Assembly (NCBI GenBank): GCA_963741525.1
Contig: CAVUIW010000002.1
Location: forward strand, 77,284 to 141,283
DNA from: an uncultured Alphaproteobacteria bacterium
Lineage (GTDB): Bacteria > Pseudomonadota > Alphaproteobacteria > Rhizobiales > Hyphomicrobiaceae
Direction: 5' to 3'
Length of the DNA stretch: 64,000 bases
The notes under the pieces: generated by a model
Told to the model about the DNA's origin: nothing
Seen by the model: only the letters and a program-made list of their open reading frames with translations
Databases searched by the model: none
Made by a program: the position numbers and the translations under genes
Part shown: positions 23,386 to 25,778 of the stretch, piece by piece
How positions within the stretch are numbered: position 1 is the stretch's first letter
How the letters are laid out: each line of letters begins with the position of its first letter

Positions 23386-23550
23386 GTGTGGCGTCGCGCC
23401 ATAGTTGACCACTATCGCTGCCCGGTCCCTAGTCAACAATGGCGCGATGAACGCCACACTAAGCCCATGATTTTTCTAGTGGCCCTTATGTAGCGCCAAA
23501 ATCGAACGGACGCCCGGCATGCATGCGATTTTGGCGCGACGGGCCACTAG
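23386..23550 (+). mobile_element. 165-nt MITE/REPIN-like composite palindromic element, copy i
   Basis: The termini gtgtggcgtcgcgcc ... ggcgcgacgggccactag are inverted repeats. Internally there are two hairpins: X at 23386-23459 and Y at 23476-23550 (ctagtggccc...gggccactag). The element starts 24 nt upstream of the Lon-like start codon. Confidence 0.7.
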
Positions 23551-23607
23551 TTGCCCGGCGACTTGCTCCCCACTAACGTTCGGGGGCGGGCCGGGCTCGC
23601 CAGCAGA

Positions 23608-23714
23608 TTAGAGCACGTTCAGGCAAAGTGGAAACCGGTTTGCCGCAAGAACGTGCTCAAAACCAAGACTTCTAGAGCGGGTTCTTGATTCCGGTCGGAC
23701 TGAACCCGCACTAG
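23608..23714 (+). repeat. CTAG-delimited double-hairpin intergenic repeat, copy B
   Basis: Stem 1 is gagcacgttc...gaacgtgctc and stem 2 is agagcgggttc...gaacccgc. By eye it is roughly 90 percent identical to the reverse complement of 43149-43252. Confidence 0.8.
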
Positions 23715-23729
23715 AAGTGTGGCCTCGCC

Positions 23730-24251
23730 TTGGAAAGCCGAGGTGTCGGAGCGGTTGTCATGGTCGTAATCAACACACCACGCGCTTCGCCGCTGATTGA
23801 TGGCCGCCAGTCGGAGCGGGCGCTCGCCATCTGCCGCGGCACCCGCCGTCTGTTGTCCTCATTCGGCATGGCAAGTCTCACGGAACTCGCGCTCGCCGGC
23901 GGCCGCCGGGCCGATATCGCGGCACTCTCATCCGCCGGCGACATCTGGATCGTCGAGATCAAATCCTCGATCGAGGACTTTCGCGCCGACCAGAAATGGC
24001 CCGACTATCTCGATTGGAGCGATCGCTTTTTCTTCGCGGTCAACCGCGAATTCCCAATCGACGTGCTGCCGCCCGACACGGGACTCGTGATCGCCGACGG
24101 CTATGGCGCCGAGATCATCCGCCCCGCGCCCGAGAGCCGGTTGGCCGGCGCCCGGCGCAAGGCCGTCACGTTGAGGTTTGCCCAGACAGCGGCCGATCGG
24201 CTGCATGTGATGTGGGACCCGGACGGGGGTCCGGCAGGCGGATTGTCTTAA
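23730..24251 (+). CDS. MmcB-like PD-(D/E)xK nuclease-fold DNA repair protein (DUF2161-like)
   Basis: GRRADIAALSSAGDIWIVEIKSSIEDFRADQKWPDYLDWSDRFFFAV resembles the MmcB family core (D..EIK). The start may be at 23760. Confidence 0.6.
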   Translation: MESRGVGAVVMVVINTPRASPLIDGRQSERALAICRGTRRLLSSFGMASLTELALAGGRRADIAALSSAGDIWIVEIKSSIEDFRADQKWPDYLDWSDRFFFAVNREFPIDVLPPDTGLVIADGYGAEIIRPAPESRLAGARRKAVTLRFAQTAADRLHVMWDPDGGPAGGLS

Positions 24252-24260
24252 GGCCGGCGC

Positions 24261-24328
24261 TTGAGCATGCTGCGATTAAATGGAATCCGGTTAATCGCGA
24301 AAGCATGCGACCAAACAATGACCTAGAG
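24261..24328 (+). repeat. Half copy (first hairpin only) of the double-hairpin repeat, copy C
   Basis: The stem is ttgagcatgctgcg...cgcgaaagcatgc, it contains aaatggaatccggtt, and it ends in cctagag. Confidence 0.55.
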
Positions 24329-24400
24329 CACTACACACATCGCCAAGGCCAAATGACACGTCACGTCCGCCGGCAAGCGGTCCGGTGCGTTCCCCACTTT

Positions 24401-24447
24401 TTGCGTTCCCGGAAGCCGCGCCACCGCGCGGCTATCCGGGATCTTCG
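24401..24447 (+). repeat. 47-nt GC-rich hairpin repeat, copy 1
   Basis: ttgcgttcccggaagccgcgccaccgcgcggctatccgggatcttcg is nearly the exact reverse complement of 41616-41662. Confidence 0.75.
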
Positions 24448-24520
24448 CCCCTCGCCGTCTGATGCGCGGCGGTAACCATTCATAACCCTCTGCCCGCATA
24501 AGCTCACCGAACAGATCGCG

Positions 24521-24959
24521 CTACGTCGGATTATCCTTCTCGATCAACTGGATTTTCCAATCTCGCCGCCAACGCTTCATTGCGCGCTCGCGCTGCGCGG
24601 CGACTACAGCATCATCATGTGCCTCGTAGTAGACTAGTGGCCCGTCGCGCCTAAATCGCATCATGGCCGCGAGCGCATTCAATTCAGGCGCGACAAAAGG
24701 GCCACTAGCACGTCCATAGGCTTAGTGTGGCGTTCATCGCGCCTTAGTTGACACGAGCCTAACCGCAGCACTGGTCAACTAAGGCGCGACGCCACACGAG
24801 CCGGTCGACCCAGTATTTCTTGGTGAAACCATCCATCAAGCGCTCTCGGTGCTGGGTGGCTCGGACGACGAGGTCGCTCGTCATGCCGACATAGAGCACG
24901 CGGCGCGGGCCACTCGCTGTGATGTAGACCCAGTAGGTCTTGGCGAAATCAGACTGCAT
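24521..24959 (-). pseudogene. Small GIY-YIG nuclease gene split by a 163-nt palindromic element
   Basis: The N-terminal part 24959..24798 encodes MQSDFAKTYWVYITASGPRRVLYVGMTSDLVVRATQHRERLMDGFTKKYWVDRL (54 codons). The C-terminal part 24634..24521 encodes VYYEAHDDAVVAAQRERAMKRWRRDWKIQLIEKDNPT plus a stop. Deleting 24635-24797 restores one in-frame 91-aa GIY-YIG protein. Confidence 0.8.
24635..24797 (-). mobile_element. 163-nt MITE/REPIN-like composite element, copy ii, inserted in the GIY-YIG gene
   Basis: It matches copy i (23386-23550) in the opposite orientation. The termini are tagtggcccgtcgcgcc ... ggcgcgacgccacac. The hairpins are Y at 24634-24708 and X at 24725-24797, and the spacer is similar (taagcc[c/t]atg). 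Confidence 0.75.
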
Positions 24960-25220
24960 CGGCATACCGACCCAATCCGTTCCAGATGAAGACCCCGGCT
25001 CTGCGCGCGGCCGGCGACGCCAGCTACGTTGCAGCCGGGGACGCAAGTGGGGAGGGTGGGGCAAGCCACGGATAGCGGCAAGTGTGAAGGCCGGGGACGG
25101 CGAGCTACGGCTTGCGAACCGATCCGCGTGTCCAAAGCCGGAGACCCTGCATTTTTCGCTCTTGGGGATGCAGGCTACGGGATCAGCTTGCCGACAGCCA
25201 ATGGTCGGAACACGGTCTAG

Positions 25221-25778
25221 TTACTTCGGCGCCCGCTTGGCGAGGATGCGCTGCAGCGTGCGGCGATGCATGTTGAGCCTTCGCGCCGTTTCCGAGACAT
25301 TGCGGTTGCAGAGTTCGTAGACGCGCTGGATGTGCTCCCAGCGGACCCGATCCGCCGACATGGGGTTCTCTGGCGGCTCGGCCTTCTGGTCGGTGCGCGC
25401 CAGCAGCGCGTTGCAGATGTCGTCGGCATCGGCGGGCTTCGAAAGATAGTCGACGGCGCCGATCTTCACGGCCGTGACGGCGGTTGCGATGTTGCCGTAG
25501 CCGGTCAGCACGACGGCCCTGGCCTCCGGGCGCGCACGCGACAGCTCCTCGATGACGTCGAGGCCGTTGCCGTCCTCGAGCCGCATGTCGACGACCGCGA
25601 AGGCCGGCGCTTTCTCGCGGATCATGGTGTGTGCCTCTGCAATCGAGGCCGCCATGCGCACGTCGAAGCCTCTCAGCTCCATGGCGCGCCCGAGGCGCGT
25701 CAAGAAGGGCCTGTCGTCGTCGACGAGAAGCAGGGTGTGGTCGGCCGGCAGATCGGCAATCGGGGTCACTTCACTCAC
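25221..25778 (-). CDS. regA: Redox response regulator RegA/PrrA/ActR
   Basis: A receiver domain (LLLVDDD ... VVDMRLEDGNG) plus the invariant C-terminal HTH NVSETARRLNMHRRTLQRILAKRAPK. The GTG at 25778 is preceded by AGGAGGA. Confidence 0.9.
   Translation of the reverse strand: MSEVTPIADLPADHTLLLVDDDRPFLTRLGRAMELRGFDVRMAASIAEAHTMIREKAPAFAVVDMRLEDGNGLDVIEELSRARPEARAVVLTGYGNIATAVTAVKIGAVDYLSKPADADDICNALLARTDQKAEPPENPMSADRVRWEHIQRVYELCNRNVSETARRLNMHRRTLQRILAKRAPK

Follow-up and report, generated by a model that had tools for sequence, protein, structure and literature searches.

A small gene for a GIY-YIG nuclease is interrupted by a 163-nt non-coding segment in the DNA analyzed here, a 64,000-nt stretch of contig CAVUIW010000002.1 from an uncultured Hyphomicrobiaceae bacterium (hereafter the window). 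We conclude, with a probability of about 80%, that this segment (24635-24797) is a copy of a non-autonomous mobile element made of two hairpins, which inserted into the gene without target duplication. The copies of the element were counted in the genome to which the window belongs (G000, an assembly of 5.1 Mb in 28 contigs that is 90% complete), and its sites of insertion were compared with those of related genomes. The element and the gene are laid out as follows.

24635..24797, plus strand: segment read as one copy (subfamily 1) of a 163-nt, TAG-tagged, double-hairpin non-autonomous element, on the basis of 57 same-ended copies, a reading frame restored on excision and the z-score of its fold.
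24635..24709, plus strand: hairpin A, element bases 1-75, in which the 5' arm TAGTGGCCCGTCGCGCC pairs with GGCGCGAC-AAAA-GGGCCACTA.
24723..24797, plus strand: hairpin B, element bases 89-163, in which TAGTGTGGCG-TTCA-TCGCGCCTTAGTTGAC pairs with GTCAACTAAGGCGCGACGCCACAC.
24798..24959, minus strand: codons 1-54 of the GIY-YIG gene (MQSDF...WVDRL), with the ATG at 24959-24957.
24524..24634, minus strand: codons 55-91 of the GIY-YIG gene (VYYEAH...EKDNPT).

A BLAST search of the whole G000 assembly with the 163 nt returned 76 high-scoring segment pairs with E-values down to 1e-70. These included 57 full-length copies, so the element is not unique to one locus, with alignments that all run from base 1-3 to base 157-163. 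Because the copies share these ends, the boundaries drawn in an initial annotation, which was made from the window sequence alone, are the true ends of the element. The copies form two subfamilies of 23 and 34 members whose consensus sequences are 82.8% identical, and most copies are 96-99% identical to the consensus of their own subfamily. The longest internal open reading frame (ORF) is 30 amino acids (aa), in agreement with the earlier view that the element has no coding capacity. A plasmid collection searched with the element gave no match, and we found no description of the family in the literature on GIY-YIG with REP (repetitive extragenic palindrome) or MITE (miniature inverted-repeat transposable element), or on Hyphomicrobium with REPIN or RAYT (two terms that are taken up below).

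Within the minus-strand gene the element sits between the codons for Leu54 and Val55. As it stands, the interrupted frame reads through 12 codons of the element before it meets a stop, for a product of 66 aa, whereas deletion of the 163 nt joins ...GTAGTAGAC to GAGCCGGTC... and lets the minus strand read MQSDF...KKYWVDRL/VYYEAHDD...EKDNPT and then a stop, in frame, for 91 aa. The rejoined ORF matches the Pfam GIY-YIG family (PF01541, E 2.2e-10), and its conserved motifs align with those of 37 homologs. An uninterrupted 107-aa paralog in the same genome (G000:C8:10841-11161; L138:1842-2162) is 95.6% identical to it over 91 residues and is continuous across the junction (...WVDRLVYYEAH...). The junction is likewise continuous (...RLV[YW][FY]E...) in all 37 aligned homologs, which come from other genomes, and none of these has the 163-nt segment, as coding sequence or otherwise. 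The proposal that the gene was cleanly split by the segment is thus upheld by the restored frame, by the paralog, which provides the uninterrupted copy that had been sought, and by the continuity of the homologs. The insertion separates the N-terminal half of the gene from the half that bears the conserved Glu, which we take to be the catalytic residue.

The clean boundaries would also suit a natural part of the gene, such as an intron or an intein-like insert, or a segment that the paralog lost secondarily. We give this explanation almost no weight, because 163 is not divisible by three, the frame reaches a stop after 12 codons of the segment, a search of Rfam with the element returned no intron family and only a chance-level match to mir-124 (E 0.99), and the segment is missing from all 37 homologs while 56 other copies lie in unrelated places.

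The structure of the element is well conserved among its copies. The predicted fold of the 163 nt as DNA has an energy of −54.7 kcal/mol, compared with −28.5 ± 3.2 kcal/mol for shuffled sequences (z −8.2), and the gene strand folded as RNA over the element gives a z of −8.7 against shuffles. The initial annotation described terminal inverted repeats together with two internal hairpins. The two hairpins are real, but they are terminal rather than internal, and the repeats are their outer arms: the outer inverted repeat (CTAGTGGCCCGTCGCGCCT / AGGCGCGACGCCACACGAG) covers 19 nt with 79% complementarity, and each terminal repeat pairs with an internal inverted copy of itself. A 13-nt spacer separates hairpins A and B, each of which is footed by TAG/CTA; in hairpin A, a 4-nt bulge parts GGCGCGAC from GGGCCACTA, and in hairpin B, TAGTGTGGCG is followed by a 4-nt bulge and then by TCGCGCC...GGCGCGACGCCACAC. 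In the alignment of all 57 copies, the 61 predicted pairs are paired in 91.9% of cases, and 8 pairs have changed on both sides. Pair 18:52 in hairpin A is A-T in 34 copies and T-A in 22, pair 110:148 in hairpin B is A-T in 34 copies and T-A in 23, and these two swaps define the subfamilies. At pair 2:72, the single copy whose 5' TAG reads TCG has its partner, base 72, changed to match. Such compensatory changes indicate that the structure has been kept, and the change at 2:72 indicates that the 5' TAG is structurally part of the element.

The flanks of the copies reveal where the element inserts. C precedes the element in 52 of 57 copies, the element itself starts with TAG (T in 52, A in 56 and G in 57 copies) and ends with CAC, and the next three bases are again mostly TAG (T in 42, A in 48 and G in 56 copies). 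The pattern resembles a duplicated CTAG without being one; the variants of the left and right triplets are uncorrelated among the 57 copies. We compared filled and empty alleles between G000 and its closest sampled congener, G003, at 12 sites with flanks that are 92-97% identical. Four of these sites are filled in G003 and empty in G000, and eight are filled in G000 and empty in G003, the latter having been picked for a right flank other than TAG. Each of the 12 empty alleles consists of the left flank joined to the right flank, save for changes at most 3 nt from the element. TAG is missing from the junction of every empty allele, and TA occurs there in a single one (as part of a TAA stop codon); the filled alleles nevertheless have TAG at the 5' end of the element. 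The triplet after the junction is the same in both alleles in four pairs (tgg, cag, ttg and gag). The mobile unit is therefore exactly 163 nt (TAG...CAC) and inserts without target-site duplication at C^TAG-like sites or, as seen from the other strand, after CTA (CTA^G), with an element that also ends in CTA. The copy in the window occupies a degenerate site, GAC^GAG, whose GAG is the complement of CTC, the Leu54 codon; since Leu is conserved at this position (the paralog has TTG), excision of the 163 nt gives back a plausible original sequence.

These alleles also bear on whether the element is a classical MITE of the DDE type, derived either from an IS630/Tc1-like element (with duplication of the TA in CTAG) or from the IS5 group (with duplication of CTAG or TAG) and moved by the IS630 copies of the genome. 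IS630 prefers CTAG and duplicates TA, and TA duplication is the defining feature of bacterial MITEs derived from IS630/Tc1-mariner elements. The element resembles these MITEs in its size, in being non-coding and multi-copy, in its imperfect terminal inverted repeats, in the CTAG-like flanks found on both sides of most copies, and in a host with many IS630 copies (21 DDE_3, or IS630-family, matches in G000). However, TA is missing from the insertion point in 11 of 12 empty alleles and TAG from all of them even though the filled alleles have the left TAG, and left and right triplets vary without correlation. In addition, no IS630 locus has element-like ends, and the only separated pair of element ends encloses an IS256-family element nested in a copy. 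Because there is no target duplication, the element lacks the feature by which DDE-type MITEs are defined; mobilization by an IS630-like enzyme, as first suggested, is contradicted by the missing TA, and we regard this origin as highly unlikely.

Two further comparisons concern insertion relative to genes. ORFs of at least 100 codons that end at the TAG of an element numbered 8, against 7 and 8 in two control frames, so we found no enrichment that would indicate targeting of stop codons. ORFs span the excised site at 36 of the 57 copies, a figure that is noisy at 64% G+C and from which no count of in-gene insertions is drawn. One copy (G000:C28:350298-350460) lies precisely where an FtsX-like gene has its stop codon, a position at which G003 reads GAC TAA; in G000 the ORF is now ended by the TAG of the element, and the old stop position reads CAG.

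Presence and absence of copies in both directions between G000 and G003, with at least 11 copies found in one genome and missing at that site from the other, show that the family has moved since these two genomes split, in line with the initial suggestion that it is or was mobile. Four copies are common to both genomes at orthologous sites, including a second copy in the window.

23386..23549, minus strand: second copy of the 163-nt family (subfamily 2), in the opposite orientation to the first and also present at the orthologous site in G003.

A search of 40 relatives found the family to be abundant in G003 and in G020, which belongs to another genus, with a few copies of 70-74% identity in G001 and essentially none in G002. 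When 151 genomes were sampled evenly across the bacterial family, full-length 163-nt copies (78-88% identity) occurred in 14 genomes, representing 8 of 51 genera. The distribution is thus patchy but wide, and the unit length is conserved. The initial description of the insertion in the window as recent is not borne out by the divergence of this copy, which is 90.8% identical to the consensus of subfamily 1 and so lies 9% from it, in contrast to the 96-99% identity of most copies, nor by the second lesion that the gene carries (see below). Two other copies group with the window copy at 95%, and several pairs have been lost from the distal arm of its hairpin A. The arrival of the copy at this site is younger than the split of G000 and G003, because the whole block in which it lies is absent from G003.

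The second lesion lies at the 3' end of the gene.

24521..24523, minus strand: premature TAG in place of the codon for the invariant Trp92 (TGG in the paralog), a second inactivating lesion.
24473..24520, minus strand: former C-terminal tail, codons 93-107 (RDLFGELMRAEGYEW), with the original stop position now TTA (24475-24473).

The paralog and close homologs are about 107 aa long and end in ...NPTWRDLFGDLMRSDGYDW, and the Trp of their NPxWxDL motif is invariant in every homolog that reaches this column of the 37-homolog alignment. In the window this codon is TAG, a substitution read from the assembly sequence at 24523-24521; the 15 tail codons that follow are still recognizable, and the original TGA has become TTA. 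The 91-aa protein proposed initially is therefore in frame and has a GIY-YIG domain, but it is not an intact protein, since it ends at the premature TAG and the true product would be about 107 aa. With Trp92 replaced by TAG and the original stop gone, excision of the element would not restore the gene. We conclude that the locus is a doubly disabled pseudogene within a nest of repeats, and for annotation the lesson is that it should not be treated as a gene that one excision would restore.

Comparison of the rejoined window ORF with the paralog gave a pN/pS (ratio of nonsynonymous to synonymous differences per site) of 0.10 (pS 0.40, pN 0.04), with low values in both halves and in the tail. 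Such a low ratio indicates that purifying selection acted on the window copy through most of the period after its divergence from the paralog, and both lesions are late in relation to this old split. Decay of these small GIY-YIG genes seems to be common. In another Hyphomicrobiaceae metagenome-assembled genome (L091:3001-3200), a homologous gene ends after about residue 62 (...VYFEPHDDMP, then a stop) and is followed by unrelated sequence, and several GIY-YIG homologs of relatives contain in-frame stops.

A transposase that might mobilize the element (a RAYT, or REP-associated tyrosine transposase, or an IS200-like or IS630-like enzyme) had been suggested as a candidate, and we found none with matching ends. 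When the whole of G000 was searched for both 15-nt ends with at most 2 mismatches, no pair bracketed its own transposase gene; element-like ends are likewise missing from all 21 DDE_3 matches; and searches of G000 for TnpB and for IS110-type transposases found none. At one locus (G000:C28:175606-177240) the two halves of an element lie 1.46 kb apart and enclose an IS256-family element with a 9-bp duplication (CACTAGCAA), whose transposase frame is broken into several frames. We rejected this locus as a parent element and interpret it as an insertion of the IS256-family element into a copy.

G000 has two credible genes of the Y1 (HUH) type. The first (C28:518813-519262; L001:1405-1899) encodes a single-copy IS200-family TnpA (NCBIfam NF033573) and is flanked by its own GTAG-tagged palindromes, GTAGCCACGGGT, of which the genome has 17 exact copies. 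This looks like a REP/RAYT-like arrangement separate from the 163-nt element; the gene was rejected as the mobilizer by its phyletic profile, being found among the 40 relatives only in G003, and its palindromes are unlike the element. The second (C2:54845-55444; L002:1261-2112) encodes a RAYT-like Y1 protein, lies between GGGGTCAGACCC palindromes and has an IS630-type transposase immediately upstream; it was set aside because its palindromes are different and because it was not found in G003 or G020. A Y1_Tnp gene is present in four of five other element-bearing genomes. Classical IS200 copies in G020 (L142), G097 (L141) and G135 (L140) all lie directly after CTAG (CTAG followed by CGTAAGCGGGAGACC...GATACTTAC), and one IS200 in G020 (L142) sits exactly at a CTAG on the edge of a copy of the 163-nt element. 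The hairpins of these IS200 copies (CCCCGGCTnTGCCGGGG) are unrelated to the arms of the element.

Several observations weigh against the explanation that we favor. First, the assembly, which is 90% complete, contains no transposase with matching ends. Second, G157, an element-bearing genome that is 99% complete in 10 contigs, has no Y1_Tnp match at all. Third, the orientation of the copies agrees with the sign of the local GC skew in 25 of 57 cases, so that the strand bias to be expected from single-strand transposition did not appear in this test, a weak one given the weak skew and the unordered contigs. Fourth, in 8 of the 12 pairs the two alleles disagree at the triplet immediately 3' of the element, far more often than in the surrounding flank, so that the 3' boundary could be fuzzy by 1-3 nt or the flank could have been altered after insertion, for example by conversion toward TAG.

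The variable triplets could also reflect conversion tracts, as would be expected if recombination or gene conversion among intergenic regions rich in hairpins, and not transposition, had spread the copies, with the copy in the gene being a patch left by illegitimate recombination. Consistent with this idea, copies often abut other TAG-delimited repeats. However, unit length and ends are the same, to the base, in all 57 copies, the sites of insertion are unique sequences that are unrelated to one another and for which the congener provides clean empty alleles, and the unit is 163 nt throughout 8 genera. Spread by recombination therefore seems to us very improbable, and we favor insertion of a discrete mobile element.

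How such an element would be mobilized is a more tentative matter. By analogy, an enzyme acting in trans may recognize the TAG-footed hairpins, most likely on single-stranded DNA, and move the element by "peel and paste", as IS200/IS605 TnpA proteins or RAYTs would do; transposition of IS200/IS605 elements is reportedly of this single-strand kind (He et al. 2015, Microbiol Spectr). We consider mobilization of this class, by a REPIN/RAYT-like or IS200/IS605-like system, a serious possibility, although we would not put it at even odds.

The gene and its insertion lie in a mosaic of other repeats.

24260..25221, no strand: mosaic block of about 0.96 kb, comprising a half copy of a repeat of about 100 nt, a D module, the GIY-YIG gene with the 163-nt element, and a U module.
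24993..25040, minus strand: U hairpin (CCCCGGC...GCCGGGG), upstream of the gene, in repeat module 24971-25178.
24407..24441, no strand: D hairpin (TCCCGGAAGCCGCGC-CACC-GCGCGGCTATCCGGGA), downstream of the gene, in repeat module 24332-24478.

The entire block 24260-25221 is missing from the syntenic spacer of G001, G002 and G003, which is bounded by an MmcB-like gene and a response-regulator gene and in which the flanks of the block lie 5-40 bp apart. The congeners have no close ortholog of this GIY-YIG clade, their best matches being about 50% identical, and we infer that the gene arrived at this site after the congeners diverged, amid other TAG-delimited repeats. At about 25 other sites in G000, U and D adjoin directly without the ORF. 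These ORF-less units retain the last codons of the ORF (TGGTGA) and lie within a 473-nt element with the termini TAGTGGCC...GGCCACTA, which have 8 nt in common with the 163-nt element. At the locus of the paralog, G000 has U-ORF-D where G003 has a short U-D unit without the ORF. The U-ORF-D arrangement recurs at homologous genes in other Hyphomicrobiaceae genomes, where no TAGTGGCC termini bracket the GIY-YIG genes; two matches to TAGTGGCC lie 9 nt upstream of an ATG and have no GGCCACTA partner.

The association of the gene with these modules raises the possibility that the small GIY-YIG nucleases themselves move TAG-footed hairpin elements, in which case the insertion in the window would be a self-hit or a form of copy-number control. 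The ORF lies between conserved U and D modules here and in other Hyphomicrobiaceae, the roughly 25 ORF-less U-D units belong to an element whose termini have 8 nt in common with the 163-nt element, and no other mobilizer was found. Against this, relatives more than 60% identical occur in G021, G018 and G007, where the 163-nt element was not found, and in G023, which gave no element match in the search of 40 relatives; the element-rich genomes G003 and G020 have GIY-YIG genes of only about 50% identity; and the GIY-YIG loci of other genomes have no TAGTGGCC termini. Because its distribution does not follow that of the element, the GIY-YIG clade is in our view unlikely to be the mobilizer, and we hold out little prospect for this explanation.

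A different role for the clade is conceivable, though rather unlikely in our judgment: it may be at the heart of a selfish cassette in which the U and D hairpins stand on either side of the ORF, and which would be a GIY-YIG counterpart of the RAYT/REP arrangement. Such a cassette would fit the presence or absence of U-ORF-D at orthologous sites in congeners (two loci), its multiple copies in several Hyphomicrobiaceae genomes, and the roughly 25 ORF-less derivatives in G000 that keep the ORF codons TGG TGA. If this were true, the cassette, together with at least four TAG-delimited hairpin families that each insert without target duplication and lack an identifiable transposase, would suggest an undescribed mobilization system in this bacterial family.

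Repeats of other TAG-delimited families are found nearby. An element of about 100 nt with two hairpins (TAGAGCACGTTCAGG...GAACCCGCAC, then TAG) occupies window positions 23610-23712 and is absent from the orthologous site in G003, which reads GATTAGAAG. As in the 163-nt element, its first three bases are TAG, its last three are CAC, and TAG follows. A sub-threshold Rfam match to BASRCI27, a Brucella small RNA, overlaps it (23602-23762; 41.3 bits against a gathering threshold of 59.8; E 7e-7). The half copy of this family in the mosaic block lies at 24259-24329.

Taken as a single event, a miniature element that disables a small accessory gene is ordinary, and the value of the locus lies in the element family: a 163-nt double hairpin whose unit length is kept across at least 8 genera, which inserts at C^TAG and has moved since two congeners split, in the company of several other TAG-delimited repeat families with the same behavior. 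CTAG is seven-fold depleted in G000 (2,397 sites observed against 16,784 expected from base composition; GATC occurs 44,283 times), and the 57 copies, with their edges, account for 127 of the CTAG sites. The mobilizing enzyme, if found, would extend the small set of systems resembling REPINs or PATEs (palindrome-associated transposable elements), either with a new tag specificity or, if it is not a Y1 transposase, with a new mechanism.

Compared with known systems, the gene resembles small stand-alone GIY-YIG proteins (PF01541; the COG2827/UPF0213 YhbQ-like group) in having about 100 aa, a single domain, and Y..Y, Arg and Glu motifs in the expected order; none of the NCBIfam models names this GIY-YIG family. 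It differs from these proteins in that the window copy is split and shortened, and in that the clade is multi-copy, is bordered by conserved hairpin modules and is variably present at orthologous sites.

For the element, REPINs are the first point of reference. These are REP doublets that form hairpins and are mobilized by RAYTs (Bertels & Rainey 2011, PMC3116915), and palindromes with a GTAG or CGTC tag are described by Di Nocera et al. (2013, PMC3733652), who report none with CTAG. REPINs and GTAG palindromes are, like the 163-nt element, short non-coding elements of high copy number in which two inverted arms form a long hairpin; their stem has a conserved xTAG word at its foot, and they cause no target duplication; and they keep their unit length across related genera and their stem through compensatory changes. 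In contrast, the tag of the 163-nt element is CTAG/TAG rather than GTAG, it moves as a fixed pair of dissimilar hairpins, G000 has no single-copy RAYT flanked by the arms of the element (its two Y1 genes carry GTAGCCACGGGT and GGGGTCAGACCC), and one element-bearing genome (G157) is without any Y1 transposase.

The IS200/IS605 elements and PATEs offer the second point of reference. The 163-nt element differs from IS200/IS605 in having no TnpA or TnpB with its ends and, by the weak test against GC skew, no detected orientation bias, and the hairpins of the relatives' IS200 copies (CCCCGGCTnTGCCGGGG) are unrelated to its arms. Because no cognate transposase was found, we do not file the element as a member of the REPINs or PATEs despite its structural and insertional fit. 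Like IS200/IS605 elements and PATEs, it has hairpins at both ends and inserts by a short conserved word without duplication, its flanks, once rejoined, match the empty allele except for the 3 nt next to the element, and the IS200 copies in three element-bearing relatives also lie directly after CTAG. The hairpin ends, the xTAG foot, the lack of duplication and the rejoined empty alleles together place the 163-nt element closest to the REPIN/RAYT and IS200/IS605 systems.

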